From the NCBI RefSeq assembly GCF_026210795.1, contig NC_089429.1:3534001-3598000 (forward strand): a stretch of 64,000 nt of DNA. The letters run 5' to 3'. The stretch is from Rhizophagus irregularis (taxonomy: Eukaryota). The translations under genes were made by a program, and so were the position numbers. The notes beneath the pieces were generated by a model. It saw nothing but the letters and a program-made list of their open reading frames with translations, did no database searches and was not told where the DNA came from. This document shows, in pieces, positions 2,014 to 62,153 of the stretch. Position 1 is the first letter of the stretch. Every line of letters begins with the position of its first letter.

Positions 2014-2400
2014 AGAAAAAGAAAAAAGAATTTTTTTTAATATTAAGAAATGTACTAACGTTTCTTTCTTTATTTTTTTGTAAGGCTAGGACGCCGAACT
2101 CTTAAAAACGAATCCAGACTTAAAAATGTAAGGAATAGGGGAGGGAGAATTGATTTTTAAATATATATTAAAGAAATGTACTAACGTTTCTTTCTTTGTT
2201 TTTATTGTAGGATTAAGACGCCAGACTCTTGGAAATGAATCTGGACTTGGATAATGTAAGGAATGGGAAGGGAATTGGTTTTTTAATATTATTGTAATTT
2301 TATTTTTGTTTTTTTTTTAGGTCAGACTACTATTTTTTGTAGAACGCCAAACCCGGACTTGAAATATAAGGAATATGGGAAGGGAAAGATAAAATTATTT
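1993..2400 (+). repeat. Micro-exon/intron tandem array A (~4 units, ~125 bp period)
   Basis: Repeated exon core GACGCC..ACTCTT..AA.GAATC..GACTT, GTAAGG donors, TACTAAC at 2053 and 2179 inside AAGAAATGT-ACTA-ACGTTTCTT, then poly-pyrimidine tract and AG. Confidence 0.75.
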
Positions 2401-7376: not shown

Positions 7377-8339
7377 GTTCAAACGTCTATTTAGCGGTAA
7401 ATCCAATCAATAGAAAATTTTATATTCGCTGAAATTAGTATCTTTTTTGAACTTTATTTTAATGAAATGACATATAATTTCAAATAATACAAATATCGAA
7501 ATTTATTAAATGTTAACAGTTAAAACAATACAATACAAATATCAGAATTTATTAAATGTCAAATTTACATATAATATAATTATCAAAATGTCAAAATATT
7601 ATAATGCGCAAACATTGAAATTTGAAACAACTAAATATCAGAATTTTGCACCACAAATCAGCTATGCCAAATGTCATCTGTTATGCAGCCGATTATCAAT
7701 CATATCCAAAATTGGAATTTTGCACTGCAAATCAGCTATGTCAAATGTCAGCTAATTATTGATCATATACAAAATTTAGCCAAAATTTAACCAAAATTTG
7801 GCCAATTTGTCTTACTTCTGATTTGCCTTATTTCAACTAGTATTTTTTTTATTATTTTTTTTTATTTATAGTATGACTGGTCAAAACTTTATGTTAACAT
7901 TGTGTCTGTATAAGATTCAAGTAAGAGAAGTTCCCCATTTCTGCTGTGCAATGAGAATATCTAGGCATACTTGTGTCAAATAACACTTCATACCAAAGAG
8001 AAATAAAACAAAAACAAAAAAAAATGAAAAATAAAAAATAAAAGGTAAAAGCCGATAACGAAACCCTATAATATAACTACTACATTCCTAAAACTAGGTC
8101 CCACTGATCATTCTGTATAGAATTCCTCAAAATACTCCTAATTTTCTTAGCATTAATCTAATTTCAGCTAAAACAGTTAGTTTCACTGGTCAAAATAAAA
8201 ACTTTCAATCATGTGACAAATCGGCTGATCTGTCATACATTTCGGCCAAATTTTGAAAATTATTAAAAATTGGCCAAATTTTGACATATATGATTTATGG
8301 TTGATTTATTGAATTATTTAATCAAACGTTATACGTTAT

Positions 8340-9110
8340 GCGTTACGCATATTAAAAGTTTAAAAAAGAATCATCTTATACATCCTTTTTTAAACTTTTT
8401 TTAATTTTTTTCTTTCCCTCCCTTTTCCTTTCCTTCATTCCCCTTCTCTGTTTCCCCTTCTTCCTCTTTCCCTTCCTTCCCTTTTTCTTCCTTTCCCTTC
8501 TCCCTTTCACTTTTTTTACTTTTTTTTTATAGGTTCGGCTTTCAAGTGGGCTTCCAAAGTACTGAAATTCCAAAGATTCGTAAATATGAATACTTTGGAG
8601 TTTATTTTATTTTTTTAATATGAACGGTTACTAACCGTTCTTTTTTCTTTTTTTTTAGGTTTGGCCATTCAGATAATTTCTGAAGAATGGAAAAAACCAA
8701 GTTTTATAAGTTTGGAACTTGGTTTATTTTTTTTTAATATTATGAATGGTTATTAACCGTTCTTTTTCTTTTATTTTTTATAGGTTTGGCGTCTCAGGTA
8801 GGGCTTCTGAGTTCTGAAGAATGAAAAAAACCAAGATTTGTAAGTATATATGAATCTTGGTTTTAATTTTTTTGTTTTTTTAATTTTATTAATGAATGGT
8901 TACTAATAACCGTTTCTTTTTTTATTTTTTAGGTTTGGGTGGGCTTTTAAAGAACAAACCCCCAAAGATAAAGATTCGTAAATATGAATCTTTACTTTTT
9001 TTTCTTTTTCTTTTAATTTTATTAATAAACGGTTACTAATAACCATTCTTTTCTTTATTTTTTTAGGTGCGGTGGGTTTCTGATAAATGAAAACCTAAAG
9101 ATAAAGATTT
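8340..9110 (+). repeat. Leader hairpin plus micro-exon/intron tandem array B (5 exons), ~150-350 bp inside a CACTGGTCAAAA terminus at 8184
   Basis: Exons of ~45-56 nt (GTTTGG...GGGCTTC.GAAGAA.GGAAAAACCAAGATTC), GTAA(G/A)T donors, GAACGGTTACTAACCGTTC branch palindrome, poly-T and TAG acceptors. Confidence 0.8.
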
Positions 9111-9445
9111 TACTAGTCGAACGATGTCAAATCGAGGACCAATCAGGTGACCGAATTCCACCTGATTAGTTCCTATTTTTTAAAAATTTTCATCAATCGG
9201 TAACCCTGATTGCTGCCAAAAGATGGTGCAAAAGGAAGATACTCAGGTACTAATCAGGATATTCAATAGAGTACAATCGGGTATTAATAGTTACCAATAG
9301 AATATTTACTATTTAACATATCAGTATACCGATTTATAGCTTTTTGATAAATTTATAACAATAAGAAATCTTCTGATTGCCATACATTTTTATTTAAAAA
9401 TTTACAAAAATTTACGATTTTATTTAAAATATTTAAAATATTTAA

Positions 9446-12400
9446 TTCGTGATTTGCCGATTACGGGATGTTGATCATATATGCATGTAATAATCAAGGC
9501 GGGGATAATCAATATATTTGAACGAGTATACTTGTAACAATCTGACAACGCGTTATTAAATATTATAACAAACTGTTTAAACATGTCAAAACGGTGGAAA
9601 CCTTCAGTAACATTGATTGCTACTGGTATAATTATTCCCGACTTACACTTTGGGCCTTTTTTAAGAAACTGGTGGCATGTTAGATCGTTACAGGAGAACG
9701 GAATGAAAGTAGAACAATACTATCCTTTTCGAATTGGTATGAAAACACAGGTTGAGCTGAAAAACAGACCTTTTATTATTCGAATAGTTCAAGGAAATAA
9801 ACATAACAATTTGTTACCGGGATTTTTTTGTGAATCTTTATCTGAATCTAATGAAGAAGTTGAAAATGACCCTACTAGTGCTATTTCAAACCTCTATAAA
9901 AAAATATTTCAAACTGAAACGCGCTTTTCTGGAACATTGGTAATGGGTATGGATGACAATGACATTCTAAGTGAAATTGTATCGGACTTGTCCTTTCTAC
10001 CTTTTTCAATAAATATGCAAAAGATCAATATAACAATACATTCAATTAGCGCGTCAACAAACAAAGGAGTTGGAAGTGGATTCGCATCATCCTTTATCTA
10101 TACCAGGTCTAAAGAACGTGCATTATTTTTCCAAACTGTCAATGAGAATGAAAGTTCCATTTATATTTACAAAGAAAACCAACTATCTGAAGAATTTCAT
10201 GGATCAGATCCTAATAGTGTGTGGAAAAAAATGGGCATGTTAAAAGAATGGTTAGGCGAGACTTTATTTGGCTTAGATAATTCTAACGTAAAAAAAAAAC
10301 TAGAACAATTGAAAAAATTTGTATGTTTTTATAATGAATGGCACGATTATTCAAAAATGGAGCAAATATTCAGATATCATTTACAAAAAAGAACATGTAG
10401 TCAAGTTGATTGGTATTTATTATTTCGGGAATGGAAAGAAAATAATTGTCCAATAATTGAATTACATAGTCAATTAGCTTCGTTATATCCAAATGGTTAT
10501 ATTTTCTCAGAAAGAGAAATGAGAGCATGGCGGGCGATGTTACGTGCTACAGGATGTATCAATATAATACCATTTGATAAAGAAGAATCAGAGGTAAGCT
10601 TTTAAACAAATTTATTACTTTCAATAGCAAAAATCTCACATTAATATTTCACGAATCTGGTGGTGATGGTAATAACTAATGATGGTGGTATATCGTGATA
10701 TAAATTCTGTGATGAACAGCACATGTTAAATTTTGTTCTATTATAAATAAAAAATAATGTTCAACTAATAAATTTTCTTACCAATTATTATAGTATGAAT
10801 TTTGGACGCGATCATCTCGATCCTGAATCAGATAAAGCAATGATAAATATGCTTTATCAAAATGGTTTTTTACGAACAATACCAAGTAATATGTTCAATG
10901 CTACAGAAGTATTCTGGAAAAGTTTTGAGCATAGTTTGAGTTTAAATAAACGTGGCGCTAATGGAAAACAAAGAATACTTTCAATAATTGCAGATAAGTT
11001 TCCTTATAAGGAATTACAAACTAGACTTCATGTAATTATTTTATAATTACCTTTGAATAAATTTTTCGCTAGTTAATTCATTATCTTTTGTAGGTTTCTT
11101 CACATACAATTCACAATGCAAAAATACATGGACGTATATTTGGCAATGGATGTCCAGCTGCACCTAAGCCACCAATGCGAAAAAAAATTATGCCTCAAGA
11201 GCATGAAGATCAATTCGAATGGTTCATGAGCAGTAAAGAAAATGTGAATTTAAGTTCTTACAAGGTCGATGCCAAAACAGGGTTGCCATTAAAATACCTT
11301 AGTGATCAGAAAGAAGCTCTTTGGGAAAAATTTCACAAATTGTACCCTGAAGGAATGAAGAGATCAGCATTTTTGGAAAGATTGAGAAATGGACCATTTG
11401 TATATCAAGAGGATTTGGGCGGACTTTGTAGTACTTGTAGTACATATGGATATGATGTATTTAAGGATTTGGCAAATCTAATTATACAAAATATTGAAAA
11501 TCAAGAACTACAGGTATTATTCCGTCCAATTTTTGTTTCTATAATTATAAATATTCAAAACTAATAACAAAATTGTAAATTAGACGCGTTTACTTAAAAG
11601 TATTGAAAATTCTAAACGATTTCTCAAACGTGATTATCCAAAACACTTACATGTGACATGTGATGGAAAAGTATCGCATGACCCTTGTATTAATCATTGC
11701 CTACCATTTGCATTTGGTAATTGTAATGAGGATCATATATCGAGTGTGTTGAATGTAACGAAATCTTCAATTTATTTGAGGAATTGCGATTATTACTTGG
11801 AGATGAACAACAAGAAACATTGAGAGAATTTCAGGAAATGCTAGAATACTACCTTGCGCACCTAACAAGAAAAGGGTATTTGAACAGTCAATTCAATGCA
11901 AATCTTTTGCAACTTAATAACGATGGTATTCTTATTGTGGTGGACTATAAGATGCGAATACTACCAAAACGAATTCGAGAAACAAAACAAGACTTCTATG
12001 CAAAACGTGGATGGGCACTGCATACTGTTTTGGTATATTCTAAAAATCAAGAAAGCAACGAATTAGAAATTCAAGCATTTGACCATTGGTCAAATGATAA
12101 TAGACAGGACGCATGGTTTACTGCTTCATTCTTTGATGCAGTATTTACCTTACTCGATCCAAAGCCAAAATGGGTTATCGTAATGAGTGATAATGGCCCA
12201 CACTACCATTGTTCAGAAACAATGGCATTGGTTTCAAAATGGGCAGAATGGTATAATATTGAATGTAAAAAGTGGTGTTTTTTAGAGGCAGGCGAAGCTA
12301 AAACCTCAATTGATAGTCACCATGCACAAGTAATAATCATATTTACTTTGCTTTTTTTGACAAATATATTCATTCGAGCAATTCTCATCTCTTTTAATTC

Positions 12401-13980
12401 AATCAATCTAAGATCTCACATGCTATTAAGAGATATGTTCGATTAGGGTTTGATTTAACTACTGGTGAAGATATTGAAAAGGCATTAGATGGTTTAAGTG
12501 GTACAGCAATAGCTTATTTGAAACCTAATCGTGATCAAAGGAGTCAAAGTAATGTTAAAACTATACCAGGAATTTCTAATTGGTTTGAATGGTCTTGGCC
12601 AACGGAGGGTCCCTTAGCTGGATATATTTGTGCACGCGACCTTCCCAATTTTGGAGAAATGATGACTTTTTCTGTGAGTAAATTTACTAAAACAGAACTT
12701 GTACAGCCTGAACCAATGGTGGGTGAACATTCCAAGGCTTCTTTAAAATGGACAATGCCAATATATCGAGCTTCAGGCAAGCTTATTTTTTCAATGGCAT
12801 TAATGGCGTTTCAATTTAATAGATCACACTTATTGTATGATTCATTTGAACAATTTTCATTTGGTAGTGACAAATACTAATCATTGGGATTTAAGAAGAT
12901 GGACAGTTGATAAATTAAAAGATGAATTGAACAGAAGAAATATTCATTTTAATATTGGTATGGGACGAGGTGAATTAGTGAATTTGTTGAAGCAAGAAAT
13001 AGGAGAAGAATCACAAATTGGTGAAGAATCAAGAGAAGATTTCTCAAAAACAGATATAGATGAGTGAGTAAAAATTGGTTTTATTATGTAAAATAATTGA
13101 TCAAATGCTCAAAAACTTTCAAAATATAATAGGAATCAAATATTTCACCTACAACTTGGATGGGCACTTAAATGCAATCAGAAATATGGTAAAAAAGGCA
13201 GTGGAAAAAGACTAGTAAAAGAAGTAGTAACGGCGTTAACTCACTTTTTTATGGTTGGACAACGTGATCCTAGTGACCGATACACTGCAAAGGATATGCT
13301 GGATGGGTTGAAAGAAATGGCAGAGAATGGTGAAATTACAACTGAAGTAATACCTTCTCTAAAAACGATAGAAAATTGGATTACTAGATATTCAAGTTTA
13401 TCGAAAAAAGAACATGCAGAACGTTTTTAGAAGAATAAATGCATTGATAAATAAATTGCGAATAAAAGATTGTAATAAATTTTACATTTTAAAATTGGTT
13501 ATCCCAGACAACCAATAGTTTTGCTACAATGAAAAATACCTTTTTTGATAATATGAAATTTGCGTTTGACTTTCAGAAATTTCAATAAAAATTCGCCAAA
13601 AATAAACAAAATATGACTTTTTTATCTTTTTCTTTATTATTAGAACAAGTTTATTAAAATATAACCCCAAAATTTGAACAAATATTAGAATTGTAAAGAT
13701 CGAAATTATGAAAGAGCCTATATATTAGAGGCAACAATCTGACATTGTCCACTAATAAACTTTTTGAAATTAAAAAACAAAATTATCGAAAAGTCATTTT
13801 GATTGAAACAAACGTGGTTATGGTGACGTATTTACAAAAAGGAAGTGGCTGAAAATTGCATATAAATTTGTGTTACTTATTGGCTAATTTCCGTAATTTT
13901 CCAGAATTAATTAGTGATCAGCAAAATTTTTGCCCCACGTTACACTGAGAATTTTATGTTACTGATCGGCGAATCACGAA
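9446..13980 (+). mobile_element. Sola3-like DNA transposon, full length
   Basis: 16-bp TIRs TTCGTGATT(T/C)GCCGAT flanked by TTAA on both sides (9442-9445, 13981-13984), enclosing one multi-exon transposase gene. Confidence 0.82.
9583..13438 (+). pseudogene. Sola3-like DDD transposase (multi-exon) with FYR-like N-terminal repeats, SAP-like motif and C-terminal helical domain; frameshifted
   Basis: VVDYKMRILP..RETKQDFYAKRGWALH, MSDNGPHYH and EAGEAKTSIDSHH catalytic-type blocks; WTVDKLKDELNRRNI...GRGELVNLL; GWALK...FFMVG...IENWITRY. Apparent frameshifts near 10817 and 11741. Confidence 0.72.
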
Positions 13981-17550: not shown

Positions 17551-17589
17551 TTATACAATATGCATGTTGGTCGAATATCTACATCACGC

Positions 17590-18410
17590 GTTACACATAT
17601 CAAAAGTTTAAAAAAGAATCTTATGCATTCTTTTTTAAACTTTTATTCCTCTTTTTCCTCGTCCTTTGGCTCTATAGGTGCAGGAAAAAAAATTTTTTTT
17701 TTTATTATTTATTTTTTAAATTTTAGTGGCTTCGTCTTTTCCTTCTCAGAATGCCAGTCAAAACTACACACCAGACTTTGGATAATAAGATAAATGGGAG
17801 GGGGAAGTCAGTTTTTTTATTTTAGAAACATTATAACGTTTCTTTTCTTAGTTTTTTTATTTATCATGAAGTCCATTTCGTCTGGAAATACTTGTAAGAA
17901 AAAGAAAGATTCGTAAGTCGAATCTTAGTTTTTTTTTAATATTATGGAACAGTTTGCTTACTTTGCTAACCGTTCTTATTTTTTTATAGATTTCGGGAAA
18001 ACGAAAAGGAAAGGGTAAAACGAAAGGGGATGGATTTCTGAAGGATATACTTTTAGAATTTGTAAGTATTAATCTTAAATTTTTTTTTTTATTATTATGG
18101 AACGGTTTACTAACCATTCCTTTCTTTTTTTATAGGTTTCAGTGTCTTGAAAGGGCTTCTGAAGAACGGAAAACCCAAAGATTCATGTACGAATCTTTGT
18201 TTTTTCTATTTTTTTAATATTATGAACGGTATTAACCGTTCTTTTTCTTTTTTTTATAGGTTCAGTGTCTCGGGAAGGCTTTCAAAGAATGGAAAAACCC
18301 AAAAATTCACATATGAATCTTATTTGTTTTACTTTTTTTTAATATTATGAATGGTTATTAATAACCGTTCTTTTCTTCTTTTTTTAGGATTGGGTGGACT
18401 TCCGCAAGTT
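17590..18410 (+). repeat. Leader hairpin plus micro-exon/intron tandem array C
   Basis: Leader homologous to 8340-8400. The first unit resembles array A and later units resemble array B (AAGATTC GTAAGTC GAATCTT; GAACGGT..TAACCGTTC). Confidence 0.78.
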
Positions 18411-30243: not shown

Positions 30244-32252
30244 TTACCCTGTCTCCTTGACATAATTACCTACGTGTTATATTTTAAAATAAAAATAAAT
30301 AAATATAACAAATTACCAATAAATGCAATAATTAAATTAAGTAAAGAATAAAAAACTTACCAGGGAATTCGCCTACAGTATTATTAACTCTTCCAACCCA
30401 CCAATCATTTGGCCCATCACCTCTCTCTAAAACTTCAATCTTATCACCTTTCCTAAAACTTAAATCATTTTCCTCTTTTCCTTCGAAATCGAACATTGCA
30501 GTGACATAACCACATGCAACAGGTATAACAGTGGTTGGAACAGCAAATCGATTTGGTGAAGAATCACATGACATTTCTGCATTTTTTGTTGCTGTATGAG
30601 ATCTCATAGTACTTTTAGAAATGGCACCGGCATCTTTGGAATTAAGAATATATTTTCTTCGGTACCAAACAAAGCAACTTACTACTAATAAAAGTAATCC
30701 TCCAAGAACTGCACCGACGATGACCCCAGCATTGGCTTTATGATTATCTAAAGGGTTTTTATCATCAGCATTAGTTGAATCAGTAGGATTTAAAGGAGAA
30801 GTTCCTTTACCTGGATTATTCTTAGTAGGAGGTAAATCAACTGGGGAGGATGGTAATTGATTACCGCGTATATAATTTAATAAACTATTTTTATCATCAT
30901 CATAACTAATATCAGATATTGAAACTCCTCCCACTGCTAACAATTTAGCATATAATGAACTAAAATCTTCATAAGATACATAAAAAATACTAAAATCTAC
31001 ATTAGAATTATAAGGATTATTATTATAAAGCCATGGAACAGAATTTGTTTGATCAAATTTACGCGTCCAATTATTTTTTGTATTACAGGAACCATAGGAA
31101 CCATTAGTTTGTGAATAATCAAGAGCATAAGCTGACAAATTCTTCCATGGCCATGAATATAATGCAGCGTTGGCTTGGATATTACAAAGATTTTTGATCT
31201 GAATTAATTGACCTCTAATTTCTTGTGGTATATCGTAAGGAACATATTTATATTCAACAGTCTGACTATCCATAATAGTTTTGTTAGTTACAACTTGAAA
31301 AGTATTCCCAAAATCTATCCCCATGATTATTTTTTCTTTGTTTTCTTTGCTAATTCTGAGACTCCAGATATCATATGCTTGTTTAAACCTTCCGTATGGA
31401 GAATTTGGATTTGTTGTAACATCATTTCCTACCGTGTTGAATTGGTTTGGGCTTGCATATAAACTAAAATGATATGTTTCAATATTAAGTAAATCAACAA
31501 TTTTATCATCAACCAGACTTATGATCTCTTCGCTAGGAGTAGGAGTGCTACCAACTGTTAACATTATTATTATTTTGTTCTGCAATTTAGTTTTCATATT
31601 CCTTATAAAAGCTCCAAAATCTGCGTCATTAACAGGTTTTTGATTACATGGAAATCCTCTCATTCCAGGATATTCAATATCCACCCCATCAAAGTTATTT
31701 TTTGTTATAAATTCACTTATATAGTCAAGAGCATCATAAAAATCTTTATCTTCCTTCCATGTTAAACGGTCATAATTTCTTATTGAAAGAAGAATCTATT
31801 ACAATAGAATAAACGTTAATGATTTAATTATTCATAATTATCAATTATATATTCTTATAATACATACTTTTACATTTTTTCCATTTGCATTTTTGGCGGC
31901 AATCAAAGCAGTATACTTCTCTTTATTTTTTTCGGGATTATTATAATCACTCACTATATTTCAAAATACAATTTGAGTAAAAAAAAAAATAAACTTTTGT
32001 ACGAAATGAAGCATCTTTTTTCCCCTTACCAATAAAATTTATATGACTATATAAATCCCATTGAATTGAATTAGGATCTATACTAGGTTGAACATAACCT
32101 ATTACTGGTCTATTAGTAAAATTTAAGGCACTCGGTTTACACCCATTATCCATTAAAGTGACTTGCGATGACACTATTGCTGCTATTGACAACAAGCTAT
32201 AAAAGACAAAAACTACAAACTTATTGAAAGGTGGAGGGTATATTTTACGCAT
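30244..32252 (-). CDS. Receptor-like protein: signal peptide, degenerate GH18 chitinase-like domain, Pro/Thr linker, single TM, cytoplasmic SH3; 4 exons
   Basis: VIGY, YSHINF, VKILLSI, NNFDGVDIEYP, KIIMGIDF, FDQTNSVPWLY, VSYEDFSSLYAK; TM GVIVGAVLGGLLLLVVSCFVW-YRRK; SH3 AMFDFEGKEENDLSFRKGD...DWWVG...GEFPGNYV. Confidence 0.85.
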
Positions 32253-34690: not shown

Positions 34691-35535
34691 ATGGCACAGC
34701 CCAATTGATCTAGATTGCTTATAAAAAGCCGATCATCCGACCCGTGTGGCGAAGTAAATTAAAAATTAAACAGGATAATTAGGAATTAAGACTATCTTTT
34801 TTTGAATTCTTCCGAATATATTACAAAACACTGCTTATTTCATTATTTCTTTATATATATATATACATATATATTTGCGTCTATAACAAAAAAAAGGATG
34901 CTTAATAATGGGAAAATACAGTAATTTCTTTCTGCAATTCCTTTCTTCTAATAAAATGTAATATTATACATTTTTATATACTTCTCTAATTTCTATTAAG
35001 TATTATACCAATTAAAGATAACTATTAATAAAACCATAAAGAAATCAATAATTTAATGTACTCGCGTGACTACAAAATGATATAAAAGACTTGACCATCC
35101 GCCCGACCGGCAGATGCGTACATTAAATAAGACAAACGTAACTAATGTGCAATTATAAAAACTAAACAAAGAAAAAAATTTAAAGAAAAAAGGGCTTTGT
35201 CCACATAAATATTCCTTCCTACGACTGATTCGCATAATGTCGTTTATATTTTTTATAATTAATTCTGATAAACAAATTAGTTAATTATTTATAGTGTTAA
35301 CTGACAACCCATTAATAGTATAATGTACATTTACCCATTCAAATCATGTGCGCATTCTGCAAAATCGTCTAGTTGGCACGTGATGATCTACATTAGTAAT
35401 ATAAATTCTGGGGCAAGATTTGATATAATGCTAGTCAAATTTAGATTAATGCTAGGGTCTAATGTCCAAATTCGTATTTATCAAGTGATAAAAAATTTTA
35501 AATTTCAACTTCGTTAAAAATAAAAGAAAAGAAAA

Positions 35536-38500
35536 ATGGATTTACGTTCTTGGGTTTCCGACAATGTGATGAAGTTACTTGGAATGTCCGAAAGGATCTT
35601 TGTAGATTATATTATTGCTGAAGCTCAATCTTGTAATACTCGGGAATCTTTACGAGAAAAGCTAACTGAGTTACCACAAACAGCGGAAGCTCAACGTTTT
35701 ATTGATAATCTGTTTGATCGAGTACCGAGAAAAAAGTCTCAAAAAGATGAAACTTATTTAAAAAGGAAAAGAGAAGAACAAGAAGCAAAAGAAGCTTTGG
35801 CAAAGTCAAAATCATATAAGTTGATTCTTGACGATTTTAGCGTTGAGGAACCATATTCAAAAAAATCTAAAAAATCTAAAAAGGATAAAAGTTTACGTAA
35901 AAAAGAAAAATTAGATACGTGGGAAAGTGATCAAGATGACAGAAAGTCTAAAAGTTCGTCGTCAAAGGAAAAGTCAAAGTATTCTGAATCTGAAGATGAA
36001 TACGAAAAAGAAGAGAAAGAAAAAATTAAAGATTTGAAAGAAAGAGATGAATTTGCTAAAAGATTAAGACAAAAGGACAAAGAGAAGACCAAAAATCTTG
36101 TTGAAGACAGATCGTCTAAAGCAGAAAGTGAAACTACTAAAAGACGTAATCTCGCCGATGATGCAGAAGCTCGTAAGAAGGTTTTACCAGATATTCGTGA
36201 GCGGTCTCGTCAAGAATATTTAAGGGATCGTACCGATAAACAAATGAAAATGTTAGAACTGGGAATTCTTGATGAAGATACTTTGTTCAAAGATGAAAAA
36301 CTTACTAAAAAAGAGAAAAAAGAACTTGAATTGAAAAAAGAAACTCTGAGATTAACAAAAGAAAGATTAAGTCTTTCTGGAAAAACTGATGATTATGCTA
36401 TGCCGGAAGATTATATCACAGAGAAAGGAAAAATAGATAAGAAAAAAAAGGAGTCGGTTCTTTATCAACGTTATGAAGAAGATCGCGATCAGCATAGGTT
36501 TGTTACAGATCAGGACCAATGGGAACAAAATCAGATCGTAAAATCACAATTAAAAGTCGGAGCTCAAGATAGAATTAAGCAAGAGGAACAATATGAATAT
36601 GTTTTTGACGATCAATCTATAGAATTTTTAAATTGGGATTGGAAATCAAATAGTCAAGATGATGAAATAATGGCCAAAATTGATGAAGCTGAAAAGAAAG
36701 CAAAGACTATTGAAGAAACTCGTAAATCTTTGCCAATTTATGCATTTCGTGATGAGTTACTTAATGCTATAGAAGAATTTCAAGTTTTAGTAATTGTAGG
36801 AGAGACAGGCTCTGGTAAAACCACTCAATTACCACAATATTTGTATGAATCAGGATATACCAAGGGCGGTAAAAAAGTTGGTTGTACACAACCTAGAAGA
36901 GTTGCTGCTATGAGTGTAGCGGCTCGTGTATCGGAGGAAATGGGTGTTAAACTTGGATATGAGGTTGGTTATTCAATTCGATTTGAAGATTGTACATCTG
37001 ATAAGACTATAATTAAGTATATGACAGATGGTATGTTACTTCGTGAATTTTTGACTGAACCTTTATTGGATGGATATAACTGTCTTATTATAGATGAAGC
37101 TCACGAGAGAACTTTACATACTGATGTTCTCTTTGGATTAGTTAAAGATATTGCTCGTAGTAGGCCTGATCTAAAACTTTTAATTTCTAGTGCTACATTA
37201 GATGCTCAGAAATTCGCAGATTATTTTGATGGAGCTCCGATCTTTTCAATTCCAGGAAAGCCTTATCCGGTCCAAATTTGTTATACAAAATCTCCTGAAG
37301 CAAATTATATTGGAGCTGCCGTAACAACTGTGATGCAATTACATATAACTCAGCAAAAAGGCGATATATTGGTCTTCTTAACGGGCCAAGAAGAAATCGA
37401 GACTGTACAAGAAAGTTTACAACAAGCTTGTAGGGTTTTAGGTAGCAAAATAAGAGAACTTATAATATGTCCAATTTATGCTAACCTTCCTCCCGATATG
37501 CAAGGAAAAATATTTGAACCAACACCGCCTGGTGCTCGAAAAGTGATATTAGCTACAAACATAGCAGAAACATCTATTACTATTGATGGTGTCTCATTTG
37601 TTATTGATCCAGGATTTGTAAAGCAAAACTTCTATAGTGCAAAAACACGTTTGGAAACATTAGAGGTTGTTACATGTTCAAGAGCTTCAGCAACACAGCG
37701 CGCAGGAAGAGCTGGTCGTGTCGGACCAGGACATTGTTTCAGGTTGTATACAAAACATGCATATGCAAATGAAATGGAAGAGAATAACGTTCCCGAAATT
37801 AAAAGGACTAATTTAGGGAATGTAGTATTAACACTAAAGAGTATTGGTATTCGTGATGTCATGAGTTTCGAATTTATGGATCCTCCTCACGAACAAGCTC
37901 TTATTTCAGCTCTTAAAGATTTATCAGATCTTGGTGCTTTAAATAATGAAGGAGAATTAACAAAATTGGGAAGAAGAATGGCAGAATATCCTTTAGATCC
38001 TATGTTATCCAAAACTATTATAAATTCAGAAAAATATCATTGTTCTGAAGATGTCATATCAATTATTAGTATGCTTAATGTTCAAAGTTCAGTTTTTTAT
38101 CGTCCAAAGGATAAAAAATTTCATGCTGATAAAGCGCGTCAAAACTTTACAAAGCCCGGTGGAGATCATCTCACCTTATTAAATGTTTGGGAACAATGGG
38201 TTGATACAAATTACTCATTGCACTGGTGTCATGAGAACTTCATCGTATATCGTTCAATGACACGAGCACGAGATGTTCGAGATCAACTTGTCTCATTATG
38301 CGAACGAACTGAAGTTAAGTTAGAATCGAATCCAAATCCTGCTGATATAGTTCCTATACAAAAATCTTTTGTTGCAGGATTTTTTATGAATACAGCGAGA
38401 TTGTTACCATTTGGTGATTCTTACCAAAAGATTAAATTTGGAGAAGCTGGAAGGAGAATATATATTCATCCAAGTAGTTCATTATTTCAAACACCACCAA

Positions 38501-38694
38501 AATGGGTGCTTTATTATGAATTAGTTGCTACCCAGAAAGATTATATGAGACAAGTTATGGAAATTCAGCCCCAATGGCTAGTAGAAGCCGCACCTACTTG
38601 TTATACAAAAGCTGAATTAGAAAAATTAGATTCAAAAAAGAAAATGCCGAAAAATCATCAAGCTGCAAGTTCATTATCCTCTTCAAGATCTTAA
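35536..38694 (+). CDS. PRP2: DEAH-box pre-mRNA splicing helicase of the Prp2/Cdc28/DHX16 type, single exon
   Basis: GETGSGKTTQ, TQPRRVAA, DEAH, SAT and QRAGRAGR motifs. N-terminal PWI-like region with ERDEFAKRL, RERSRQEYL and QWEQNQI blocks typical of DHX16. Confidence 0.92.
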   Translation: MDLRSWVSDNVMKLLGMSERIFVDYIIAEAQSCNTRESLREKLTELPQTAEAQRFIDNLFDRVPRKKSQKDETYLKRKREEQEAKEALAKSKSYKLILDDFSVEEPYSKKSKKSKKDKSLRKKEKLDTWESDQDDRKSKSSSSKEKSKYSESEDEYEKEEKEKIKDLKERDEFAKRLRQKDKEKTKNLVEDRSSKAESETTKRRNLADDAEARKKVLPDIRERSRQEYLRDRTDKQMKMLELGILDEDTLFKDEKLTKKEKKELELKKETLRLTKERLSLSGKTDDYAMPEDYITEKGKIDKKKKESVLYQRYEEDRDQHRFVTDQDQWEQNQIVKSQLKVGAQDRIKQEEQYEYVFDDQSIEFLNWDWKSNSQDDEIMAKIDEAEKKAKTIEETRKSLPIYAFRDELLNAIEEFQVLVIVGETGSGKTTQLPQYLYESGYTKGGKKVGCTQPRRVAAMSVAARVSEEMGVKLGYEVGYSIRFEDCTSDKTIIKYMTDGMLLREFLTEPLLDGYNCLIIDEAHERTLHTDVLFGLVKDIARSRPDLKLLISSATLDAQKFADYFDGAPIFSIPGKPYPVQICYTKSPEANYIGAAVTTVMQLHITQQKGDILVFLTGQEEIETVQESLQQACRVLGSKIRELIICPIYANLPPDMQGKIFEPTPPGARKVILATNIAETSITIDGVSFVIDPGFVKQNFYSAKTRLETLEVVTCSRASATQRAGRAGRVGPGHCFRLYTKHAYANEMEENNVPEIKRTNLGNVVLTLKSIGIRDVMSFEFMDPPHEQALISALKDLSDLGALNNEGELTKLGRRMAEYPLDPMLSKTIINSEKYHCSEDVISIISMLNVQSSVFYRPKDKKFHADKARQNFTKPGGDHLTLLNVWEQWVDTNYSLHWCHENFIVYRSMTRARDVRDQLVSLCERTEVKLESNPNPADIVPIQKSFVAGFFMNTARLLPFGDSYQKIKFGEAGRRIYIHPSSSLFQTPPKWVLYYELVATQKDYMRQVMEIQPQWLVEAAPTCYTKAELEKLDSKKKMPKNHQAASSLSSSRS

Positions 38695-47540: not shown

Positions 47541-49016
47541 CAGTCACCCCTCTCTACAGCGAACCTCGATATAGCGAATAACATGATATAACGGATCATA
47601 CAGTGTGGTACCGATTTTAAATATGAAAAAAACCTTGATATAACGAAGTTTACTATTTATTTACCGTATAACGTAGTACGAAGTAAAGTGTGTGAATTTC
47701 TTATATAAAAATGCCTCTCGATATAACGGATTTTTTTTATAACGAATTTTTTTCAGTTATAACGAAGAATTTCTTTATAATTAAATGTAATTATTAATAA
47801 ATATTGATGCATTATGACATTAAATATCACCCCTGTGTTTTATATTTAAATTATGGATCAGGGATTGTATCAGGATCGTATCGGGATTAATAATTCTGGC
47901 TATTTTATTTAATATTTAGGCAGAATTACATTAATTTACATTAATTCAGTTGTATTAGGATTCGATGTGAATTGTTATTAATTTATATTTATCACAGGGG
48001 TAAGGACACTCCTAGTTAAATTAATATATCATTAATAATTTATTTATTATATATTCAGTTATTGTTAAACAGCATTCCTACAAAAAAAAGGAATTATAAT
48101 AAACATTTTTATATAGAACACTTCAGGAAGCATTCCCTATAATAAAAAAATAAAAAAAAAACATTAGTAAATGTTCTTAAACGAAATTAAAAGAAAAAAT
48201 TGAGTTGTGCCACTTACTTCTTGTCTCAAGCGTTCATTTCGAAGTCCCTACAATAAAAAAAAATAAAAAAGAATATTAGTAAATGTTCTTAAACGAAATT
48301 AAAAGAAAAAATTGAGTTGTCCCACTTACTTCGTCTCAAGCGTCCATTTCGAAGTCCCTACAATAAAAAAAATAAAAAAAGAACATTAGTAAATGTTCTT
48401 AAACGAAATTAAAAGAAAAAATTGAGTTGTCCCACTTACTTCGTCCCAAGCGTCCATTTCGAAGTCCCTACAATAAAAAAAATAAAAAAAGAACATTAGT
48501 AAATGTTCTTAAACGAAATTAATAAAAAAAATCGAGTTCCCCACTTACTTCTTGTCTCAAGCGTCCATTTCGAAGTCCCTACAATAAAAAAAATAAAAAA
48601 GAACATTAGTAAATGTTCTTAAACGAAATTAATAAAAAAAATCGAGTTCCCCACTTACTTCGTCTCAAGCGTCCATTTCGAAGTCCAGGAAGTTTCCTAC
48701 AATAAAAAAAATAAAAAAAGAACATTAGTAAATGTTTTTAAACGAAATTAATATAAAAAACCCCCAGTTCCCACTTACTTCTCATTCTAGGCATCTATTT
48801 TGAAGTTTAGAAAGCACCACTATAAAAAAAAGATTAAAAAAAATGTTAAATTATCGGTAATCAGATCAACAAGTCACATGATCTGTATAACCGATATTCC
48901 TATACCGAAGAATTCATTATACAATACCGAATAATTCATTATAGTGTTAACGAAGTTGCTTATAACGAAGCCCTGATCAGCTGGAACCTAGGGTTCGTTA
49001 TATCGAGAGGGGACTG
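47541..49016. mobile_element. Non-autonomous Tc1/pogo-type element
   Basis: TA TSD; TIRs CAGTCACCCCTCTCTACAGCGAACC / CAGTC-CCCTCTCGATATAACGAACC; subterminal GATATAACG repeats. Confidence 0.85.
48075..48830 (-). repeat. Micro-exon/intron tandem array D (~110-bp period, 6-7 units, near identical)
   Basis: Exon GGACTTCGAAATGGACGCTTGAGACGAA (e.g. 48330-48357), GTAAGT donors, ~82-nt introns with AAGAACATT-TACT-AATGTTCTT and TTTTATTGTAG acceptors. Confidence 0.88.
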
Positions 49017-50365: not shown

Positions 50366-51397
50366 TAGAGCTCCGAACAGGTCAGCCAAATTCAGGTAAC
50401 CTGACCTGACCAGACCTGAAATTCAGGTCAGGTATGAGATTTTTAAAAAAAATTCAGGTCAGGTATGAAGATTGACCTGACCTGATTGACCTGTTGACCT
50501 GAAACTATTGATTCTACTATATAATAAAAGTGAGTTGCAGTATTGCGATTCACTTTTTTATATTGATTCTATATAAAAAAAGTGAGTTGCAGTATTGCGA
50601 TTCACTTTTTTATATAGATTCTATATAAAAAAAAGTGAGTTGCGGTATTGCGATTCACTTTTTTATATTGATTTTATATAATAAAAGTGAGTTGCGATAT
50701 TGCGATTCACTTTTTTATATTAATTCTATATAAAAAAAGTGAATCGCAATACCGCAACTCACTTTTTTTATATAGAATCTATATAAAAAAGTGAATCGCA
50801 ATACCACAACTCACTTTTTTTATATAGAATTAATATAAAAAAGTGAATCGCAATACCGCAACTCACTTTTTTTATATAGAATCTATATAAAAAAGTGAAT
50901 CGCAATACCGCAACTCACTTTTTTTATATAGAATCTATATAAAAAAGTGAATCGCAATACCGCAACTCACTTTTTTTATACAAAATCAATATAAAAAAGT
51001 GAATTGCAGTATTGGGATTCACTTTTTTATATGATTTTAATATAAAAATGTTGAATCGCAATATTTCGAGAAAAAACGTTGCGAAAACGTTTTTTCATAA
51101 TATAACATTTTTTTCATAATGTTATATTAAAAAAAACGTTTTGCAATATTTTTTTTCAATATTTTAATAAAAAATGTTGCAAAAACGTTTTTTTTCATAA
51201 TATTATATTAAAAAAAAAAGTTTTGTACCGTTTTTTTTTCAATACTTTAATAAAAATAGTCCTGAAATTTTTCAGGTTTCAGGTCAGGTCAGGTCAAACA
51301 GACAACCTGATATAACCTGACCTGACCTGACCTGAAAAAAAATTTCAGGTCAGGTTTATCAATTAACCTGACCTGACCTGACCCATTCGGAGCTCTA
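50366..51397. mobile_element. Non-autonomous hAT element with internal palindromic satellite
   Basis: TIR TAGAGCTCCGAA; 8-bp TSD CTGCCATA (50358-50365, 51398-51405); subterminal (ACCTG)n repeats. Confidence 0.92.
50520..51065. repeat. ~54-bp hairpin-unit tandem array that switches orientation at ~50730
   Basis: About 4 copies of AAAAGTGAGTTGC.GTATTGCGATTCACTTTT, then about 5 reverse-complement copies. Confidence 0.9.
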
Positions 51398-59941: not shown

Positions 59942-62153
59942 ATGCATAGGAACCTCAATACTAGATCTCAACAAAAAGAATCAGATTCCCGTTCTCACTC
60001 ACATCGTTCTCATCAATGATCCCATTCACGTTGTTCCCATCGTCGTTCTCATTCACGTTGTTCTCATCAACGATCTTATTCACGTTGTTCCCATCGTCAT
60101 TCTCACTCACATCGTTCTCATTAATGATCCCACTCACGTCGTTTACATCGTCGTTCTCATTCACGTCATTCCCATCGTCGTTCCCAACCTCGTAGTCGTA
60201 GTCGTTTCCAATCTCATAGTCGTAGTCGTTCCCAATCTCGTAGTTGTAGTCGTTCCCAATCTCGTAGTCGTAGTTGTTCCCAATCTCGTAGTCATCATTC
60301 TTATCCTCATTCTCACCAACAACATATCTCTTCATCCCATTCTAGTTCTCCTATCCGTTCACGTCGACATCATTGATCACATAAATCACAATCTAGATCC
60401 CGCAATTCTTACCATCATCGATCCTATTGTGAAGTATTTGATTCTAATGATCAATTTACCACTCTCTCATCCAAAGATTCATCACCACAAAATAGAGAAA
60501 GATCATTAACAAAAAGTAATATTATTTTAAATTAGTCTTAATTACATTTCAAAAAATATACCGATTTAACATAATTATTATAGGAACACTTACAAATCAA
60601 TCTTCGATATTGCAAAATCAACCTTCCTCTTCAATTACTCCGGCTCTAAATAGCGGTATTATTTCCCTCACGCTCCTATTTTGACTTACATGTAAAAAAA
60701 AAAATTTTCAAAATGAATTATATTAAATACTGACTTATAATAGGTGGCGTTGAAAACCAAGAAATTCAAGAATTAAGAAATGTAATCTTAAATCTCACAC
60801 AACGCTTAAATAACCTAACCGAAAAAAACGCTAGTCATGAAGAACCTTTAGTTAATCGTCCCAATAGAAGCTTATTACCTATTATTATTAGAGAACAGAA
60901 ACGTGAGCTGCCACTCATGTCAAGTAATTATAAGAAGACACTTCACGTAAATATACATTTTTATTAAAATTTATCTTTATTAAATATAAATATTTGATCA
61001 TTTAATGACTGTTTTATTAAATAAAATAAAGTAGTCCATATTCTCAATAATCTTAATCGGTCACTTCAATTCGACCTATCAAAGACGTACAGTGAACAAA
61101 AAAAGCAATAGAAAGAAAACTTTTGCCAGCAGTAAAATCGGCCATGAACCCTTCTATTGTAGCATATGATATAGAGATAGTAAAAATCATAAAACAATTG
61201 CATAAATCTCGCCGAGAGATTTGGAAACTGCAAAAAGAAGGTAAAATGCCAGAACATACCAAAAGACAACACATGATATCCAGGAGGGATCAGGTATAAA
61301 ATTCATTATTTAATAATAAAAACATATACAATTAATTAATTTTTTAATTTACTCTTCAATAGAAGATGTTCCAGCGCAAAAGAGGATTGCAACATATGAT
61401 ATCGACACGAGACAAACTTTTGACTGAATGCCAACCTCGTAACTTAAAATGGGAAGAATTCATCAAAGATTGTATAAAGGCGACTAATACTTCAGACATA
61501 CACTCGGACGAATGGTCCACAGAAGATGAGGAATTAGCAAACAAAGAACGCAGTAAAAATACAAGATCAGGCTGATTAATTAACAATAATTCAGTAATAA
61601 AGATTTACGACAAGAAGTGGCAGTCGTCGGGAGTATGCGAAGTCGTGATGTTATTAATGAATATAGCATTTATGCTTAATAAATTATAAATTTTTATTAG
61701 ATTCAAAAAATTCTACATCGATCGGAAGAAATTGGTATTAGCATCGGATTTGGTCTAAGTCGTCCACGTTACTGCTCAGATGAAAATTTTGACAAAAAAA
61801 GTAAACCAAAGGAGAACATTCCCAGTTGGTGGATTTCGTCAAGCTGGGTTATACAAGAATCCGACGAAGATGGTGATGAAGAGGATAATAGTAATGACGA
61901 TAACAATGATGATAACAATGACGACAATAACGACGAAGATAAAAACAATGCTAGTAATGATAAAAACGACAATAACGTTAACGATAATAATAACGATAAG
62001 AATAATGATGATAAGAAAACCGATAATAATGATTATATTCTTATCGATGATAGCGATGAAAAGGATGATCCATTTCGACTAGTGGTTCCAAAAGAAATTA
62101 TTAGGGGATCAACTACTAAAAAACGTTCTCTTTTAAAAAGTGAAAGAAAATAG
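59942..62153 (+). pseudogene. Third CACTA-like accessory gene copy with long RS/His-rich N-terminus
   Basis: MHRNLNTRSQQKESDSRSHSHRSH...RSRSRSQSRS; EIQELRNVILNL; LHKSRREIW; RKRGLQHM; HSDEWSTED; PSWWISSSW; acidic tail. Clear paralogue of 52290-54339. Confidence 0.75.

Follow-up and report, generated by a model that had tools for sequence, protein, structure and literature searches.

In a 64-kb stretch of Rhizophagus irregularis DNA, here called the window, a series of very small exons and introns (array B, 8533-9110) carries hairpins over its donors and its branch sites. The hairpins are real, but we observed no sign that selection is still keeping them in array B. We lean towards the reading that array B is a decayed and truncated micro-exon/intron array borne by a transposon, whose hairpins are inherited palindromes that probably arose via template switching and would likely slow splicing. 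Most likely, array B is a fossil copy. An earlier note on this DNA had proposed that both the U1 and the U2 target sites are structurally gated; judged from the predicted folds, such gating appears unsupported for this copy.

Array B lies on the forward strand of an A/T-rich window with many transposons, and consists of four exon+intron units (~125-150 nt each) and a cut fifth exon, placed between CACTA-like ends. Its head (8332-8412) is 83% alike over 81 nt to positions 17580-17657 of a sister array, array C, contains a long A/T inverted repeat (~8354-8399, fold z -5.6) and is a possible promoter or first exon. A long pyrimidine tract follows (8414-8532), with the first acceptor AG at its end. 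The four complete exons measure 47, 47, 56 and 45 nt (8533-8579, 8659-8705, 8784-8839 and 8933-8977), and their introns 79, 78, 93 and 89 nt (8580-8658, 8706-8783, 8840-8932 and 8978-9066); exon 5 (9067-9110) ends one base before the donor position. The donor hairpins quoted in the earlier note were all found letter for letter. Hairpin 1 (8570-8598) holds a GT donor at 8580 with a +5 G>A change and a one-base bulge in its 3' arm, while hairpin 2 (8697-8722) carries an A:T to T:A double change around a dead donor, AT at 8706, so that the 5' splice site claimed for this unit is not a GT site. Hairpin 3 (8831-8860) has an intact GT donor at 8840 and an enlarged loop, and hairpin 4 (8969-8994) has GT at 8978, again with +5 G>A, and an outer-arm variant that also occurs in the metagenome contig L001. 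Altogether, the introns show the ordered signals of U2-type spliceosomal introns, with GT in three of the four, and a branch-like motif, a pyrimidine tract and AG in all four; one donor is dead (unit 2, AT) and two lack the +5 G (units 1 and 4, A).

A branch hairpin had been claimed for each intron. All four introns do contain one, but its two arms match perfectly only in intron 1 (8622-8640), where the branch A (8634) lies in the stem. The branch hairpins of intron 2 (8744-8762, branch motif C>T) and intron 3 (8894-8915) include G-U pairs, and the eroded one of intron 4 (9027-9048) has two A-C mismatches. Compared with 200 shuffles each, the four units fold with z-scores of -5.33, -3.35, -3.50 and -2.48, with 0, 2, 0 and 3 shuffles as good. 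On the minus strand the units fold with z-scores between -2.9 and -5.6, as palindromes should.

The description of the 5' splice sites as displayed in hairpin loops is half right. Predicted folds place the GU of the donor and the branch A in stems, and mostly +3 to +6 are left open. At the array B donors, predicted pairing is 1.0 at -3 to -1 and 0.9-1.0 at +1, and at +2 it is 0.8-1.0 in three of the four units, unit 2 being the exception; for the branch A it is 1.0 in units 1 and 2. In the least decayed form, found at 698-733 of L001, the donor sits at the centre of a near-perfect palindrome. A stronger occlusion of array donors, relative to donor-like sites elsewhere, was not supported: mean predicted pairing over -3 to +6 is 0.54 at the four array B donors, not above the 0.61 +/- 0.16 of 35 donor-like controls in the window. 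Among branch-like sites outside the arrays, 39 of 42 window candidates have stems of 2-5 pairs, compared with 4-9 pairs in arrays B, C and D.

Related arrays occur within the window and on two metagenome contigs, L001 and L002, which were the only loci retrieved by a metagenome scan with a 22-base branch pattern; a variant of this pattern had no match in viral contigs. Our family-level comparisons cover the window, these two metagenome loci and one RNA read alignment. Across the three contigs, 18 related introns are about 70-75% alike, and the flanking exons are homologous, having been duplicated along with the introns. Array C (17870-18400, forward strand) belongs to the same family as array B and shares its head; two of its four donors are dead. 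L001 presents nine donor hairpins of this family consecutively, with exon lengths of 46, 46, 37, 41, 45, 49, 31 and 45 nt. On the minus strand of L002, at 400-2270, about 14 small exons and introns, the last of which are array B-family units, precede a set of subterminal repeats and then a CACTA-type end. This block looks complete and non-coding, lies between an ORF of unknown nature and the CACTA-type end, has poly(A)-like signals downstream and shows branch hairpins in most of its introns. In both contigs, the last array unit (L001 1456-1490; L002 minus strand ~590-630) has a second donor 28-37 nt 3' of the hairpin donor, followed by another inverted repeat. Arrays A and D of the window differ from array B in sequence and have the same build. 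Array A (2040-2330, forward strand) comprises two or three exon+intron units of 126 nt, whose branch hairpin is of a third type. Array D (48140-48830, minus strand) comprises six 110-nt units that are more than 90% alike; the stem enclosing their branch motif is perfect, too, but of another sequence. Array D looks younger than array B and may be a better locus for expression tests. Among these other intron types (L002, array A, array D), at least three different stem sequences enclose the same branch motif.

The exon lengths of array B and L001 hold no shared frame, which argues that the array units are non-coding, and protein coding was ruled out on this ground. The unspliced 128-aa reading of L001 matched one unnamed metagenome protein among 103 candidates, which gave no confirmation that arrays of this kind have been annotated as hypothetical proteins. 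In an Rfam search for known RNA families, we obtained six weak matches (E 0.26-0.81), all far under the gathering scores.

According to the earlier note, both donor arms change together. Over 17 units, 5 of the 10 donor pairs do show two-sided change, but mostly in the outer pairs and as recurring variants. Both sides have changed in 13 of 170 cells of the 17 hairpins. Ten of these 13 cells fall in the three outermost pairs and represent few arm types plus one-base shifts; since the outer-pair variants recur in L001, a different genome, they look inherited rather than independent. The inner stem contributes three two-sided changes, namely A:T to T:A in unit 2 of array B and, in L001, A:T to G:C and C:G to T:A, the latter consisting of two CpG hits. 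The covariation score of the donor stem was reached by none of 500 shuffles and the number of covarying pairs by 8 of 500, with slid partners scoring lower; the shuffles ignore relatedness, and the sample is small and made of related units. The alignment omits unit 2 of array C, since the degeneration of its hairpin leaves no anchor, and one L002 unit with no recognisable donor; unit 1 of array B is misaligned past its bulge and was scored as unpaired there. The branch stem showed no two-sided change in any of its six pairs across 18 units.

In 14 units, non-CpG cells deviate from the majority in 17 of 335 cases in the arms, 100 of 396 in the exon bodies, where the alignment is noisy, and 64 of 357 in the spacer. 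Deviations are therefore about five times rarer in the arms than in the exon bodies, which indicates that the arms were kept, by selection or by arm-to-arm repair. The earlier conclusion that the structure is maintained finds partial support at the family level, in arm conservation and donor covariation, but none in the branch stem, which lacks covariation, nor in the degenerate donors of array B itself.

Selection on a transcribed structure was expected in the earlier note to leave an excess of G-U-compatible changes on the transcribed strand. We found no clear excess of this kind: 16 inner-stem cells are G-U and 11 A-C (p=0.44). At the eight CpG positions of both stems, in 17 donor and 18 branch hairpins, there are 16 C>T changes, which are G-U compatible, and 11 G>A changes, which are not. 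In the 14-unit alignment, the ratio of CpG changes is 12:8 in the stems and, with no difference, 11:5 at two exon CpG sites (Fisher p=0.73). These control sites may themselves be paired, as an L001 exon folds at z -2.0. A +1 G>A change is found in 5 of 17 donors. CG methylation of silent transposons has been described for Rhizophagus irregularis (PMC8647823), and template switching is reported to make and repair perfect stems in a single step (10.1101/2021.04.15.439925). As the G-U comparison has low power and sees mostly dead copies, it lowers the probability of RNA-level selection in active elements and does not exclude it. Neutral decay of dead copies would be the same whatever kept the hairpins of active copies, so the comparison is compatible with RNA-level selection in master copies.

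To RNA data we turned through four raw-read runs chosen by species label, representing three samples from two studies; 24-30% of each run was read and compared with window positions 8000-11300 at 85% likeness. The libraries are not stranded. In the three poly(A) runs, summed depth reaches ~60-240 over array B; starting at 9221 it drops to ~2 at most. Reads 99% alike to array B number only 34 of 1175, 27 of 1513, 9 of 710 and 0 of 99 in the four runs, so nearly all of the RNA reads derive from paralogues. At least nine reads skip 8839-8932, probably through GT..AG removal of intron 3 from a paralogue that has C at 8839. Loose ends that put an exon end straight next to an exon start are seen in run X21 in at least 9 and at least 10 reads; such paralogue reads connect the end of exon 1 to the start of another exon. 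Joins at the exon end are present in runs from both studies. At the donor position of unit 2, 364 reads run across unspliced, and 296 of these 364 paralogue reads have G at 8706. At five positions changed in array B, 63-83% of the paralogue reads have the intact base among the matches listed, which makes array B the derived, worn state. Within the family the donor is used in splicing, and most aligned reads are unspliced; these statements concern the family as a whole. The excess of unspliced reads may come about because short pieces of exon align poorly, or because the libraries contain some DNA, carry-over of a high-copy repeat being possible.

The surroundings of array B, as judged from sequence motifs, suggest that the arrays are likely carried by CACTA-type DNA transposons. 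Array B begins ~150 nt past a CACTA-like end at 8184-8195, a putative terminal repeat on the forward strand that differs by two transitions from the L002 end and is accompanied by subterminal repeat motifs at 8244 and 8272. It stops exactly at a second CACTA-like end (9111-9121, forward strand), which agrees in 10 of 11 bases with the ends in L002 and at window position 62084 and truncates the array, probably as a later insertion. The end at 62070-62084 is a right-hand CACTA-type end whose motif matches those of L002 and of 9111. In L002, array B-family units lie ~600 nt inside a CACTA-type end with similar subterminal repeats. Array C is located directly 3' of a truncated gene that resembles the Transposase_21-like protein of the window (43% identity over 86 aa), itself a PF02992-like match under the curated cut-off. 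A Transposase_21 gene was found neither beside array B nor in L002, and the upstream ORFs of L002 had no Pfam match. CACTA/CMC transposons have a matching second end and a 2-3 bp target duplication. For the 8184 end, the 64-kb window holds no partner at up to 2 mismatches in 14, and no target duplication was found at the CACTA-like ends of array B; the transposon link is weakened because these ends are motifs of 11-12 nt with neither partner nor duplication. CACTA-superfamily elements are described as prevalent in Rhizophagus irregularis, and about two thirds of Rhizophagus repeats as unclassified (PMC11075540).

The ORF adjoining array B is 97% identical to a Rhizophagus irregularis protein, with more matches in other Glomeromycota. 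The region 9538-13440 (forward strand) is an intron-containing gene with relatives across Glomeromycota and no Pfam match; its first part attracts hardly any RNA reads, and it is likely a transposon gene. The window also encodes a hAT transposase C-terminal dimerisation domain (PF05699; 6587-7180, forward strand), a GH18 (chitinase-like) domain fused to a C-terminal SH3 domain (30332-31795, minus strand) and, in a long uninterrupted ORF, a DEAH-box helicase with an N-terminal PWI-like match of the splicing-factor type (35524-38694, forward strand). At 50517-51063 a 52-nt unit, an inverted repeat in its own right, recurs 10.5 times in tandem.

A possible, if doubtful, alternative is that the hairpins are selected RNA gates that meter the access of U1 and U2 in a micro-exon lncRNA, with array B working or recently so; in variants of this idea, they would serve regulated intron retention, spliceosome stalling or the sponging of splicing factors. 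The donor-stem changes that exceed shuffles agree with it, but the branch stem lacks two-sided change within the family. Conserved arms, differing stems that hold the same place around the branch motif, and the short stems at nearly all branch-like sites outside the arrays speak for gates; yet the slight surplus of G-U over A-C cells is not significant, the array B donors are in part dead or weakened, and their net pairing is no higher than at controls. Family poly(A) reads are abundant and mainly unspliced, with a minority joined, as a gate would allow, whereas very few of them are near-identical to the array B locus. In its boldest form, which we consider unlikely, transposons of mycorrhizal fungi carry a class of tandem micro-exon ncRNAs in which each intron's branch site, and often its donor, is hairpin-locked, and the array acts to trap spliceosomes or to brake splicing to a tunable degree. 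If this were true, the array would set the retention, the export or the small-RNA silencing input of the element's RNA.

The inverted repeats could also be purely a matter of DNA, as pairs of transposase-binding subterminal motifs or as ssDNA hairpins promoting slippage and tandem duplication; that they overlap splice signals would then go back to an intron caught by chance in the unit and have no role. Near-perfect palindromes with very small loops that fold equally well on both strands fit this account, as do the inverted repeat of the head, which is unrelated to splicing, and the second donor beyond the hairpin donor in the last units of L001 and L002. Hairpins remain, moreover, in units with dead donors (unit 2 of array B, units 3 and 4 of array C, and two in L001). 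We nevertheless regard it as quite unlikely, given that the branch motif holds its place across differing stems, that spliced reads use the donor, and that the arrays sit inside the subterminal repeats and not among them. Hardly credible is an A/T-rich minisatellite with splice-like words by chance and reads from contaminating DNA. Most aligned reads are indeed unspliced, both directions are equally represented in the libraries, and DNA reads could be attracted by a high-copy repeat; but the donor, branch motif, pyrimidine tract and AG are correctly ordered in every unit, and the exon-end joins in runs of two studies, being junction-type reads, largely refute it.

We therefore return to the decayed, transposon-borne array with inherited palindromes. 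An ancestral exon+intron unit would have been duplicated head to tail within transposons. Short-range template switching, copying one arm onto the other, could then have produced whole Watson-Crick variants with no G-U intermediates, such as the outer-arm types, A:T to T:A, A:T to G:C and the paired one-base shifts. Arm conservation and the differing stems around the branch motif weigh against template switching as the sole account, and some constraint in active elements may have kept the hairpin arms. With the GU of the donor and the branch A inside stems, and the U1 site thus half covered, splicing would be slow, and introns would be kept in many transcripts. Once copied and CG-methylated, copies such as array B would erode alike on both strands.

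With four arrays in one 64-kb window, such arrays seem to be a common, transcribed and partly spliced part of the unclassified Rhizophagus repeats, and gene annotation is likely to be misled by them. Since a single intron exists here in many natural versions, each splice signal being covered by a stem, the arrays provide a test bed for U1 and U2 access, and they suit the separation of template switching from selection as the origin of compensatory changes.

Stems over a 5' splice site are familiar from yeast RPL30, tau exon 10 and SMN2 exon 7, and tandem branch-point motifs in a non-coding RNA from Gomafu/MIAT, all single-locus and experimentally tested cases. Array B may resemble them, with the difference that it repeats the intron as a whole and covers the donor as well as the branch site. 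We found no published account of these arrays in what was mostly open literature, and the supplementary repeat libraries of PMC11075540 and of a 2022 assembly preprint may hold them. The CACTA/CMC-EnSpm elements (including Plavaka) of Rhizophagus irregularis share with our loci the CACTA-like ends, subterminal repeats, Transposase_21-like fragments nearby and CpG decay (PMC11075540, PMC8647823); unlike here, internal micro-exon arrays are not described in the available text of these accounts. The hairpins generated by template switching in RNA likewise have perfect short stems, multi-base two-sided changes and altered loops; they are described, in the parts available, for rRNA and other RNA genes (10.1101/2021.04.15.439925), and the likeness of array B to them is tentative. 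Introners, which are intron-generating transposons, carry splice signals in their transposon sequence, as array B does (PMC12130899), but the array intron is not a mobile unit and its ends have neither terminal repeats nor target duplications; Rhizophagus, Glomeromycota and CACTA are absent from the main text of that paper. Closest are the fungal introner-like elements (ILEs) and introns duplicated within the same gene, which, as far as the available text of PMC3609843 and PMC4457414 describes them, are likewise multi-copy spliceosomal introns, with canonical signals, compensatory changes and fast degeneration. A stable predicted structure, a feature of ILEs in the same sources, is also found in array B (z -2.5 to -5.3). 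ILEs, in these descriptions, insert singly into unrelated genes, whereas in array B exon and intron were duplicated together, head to tail, in a non-coding setting. Its mode of duplication is thus closer to 'same gene duplication' than to that of ILEs, and its structure consists of two local hairpins, at the donor and at the branch site. The arrays apparently represent an undescribed variant of structured multi-copy introns.
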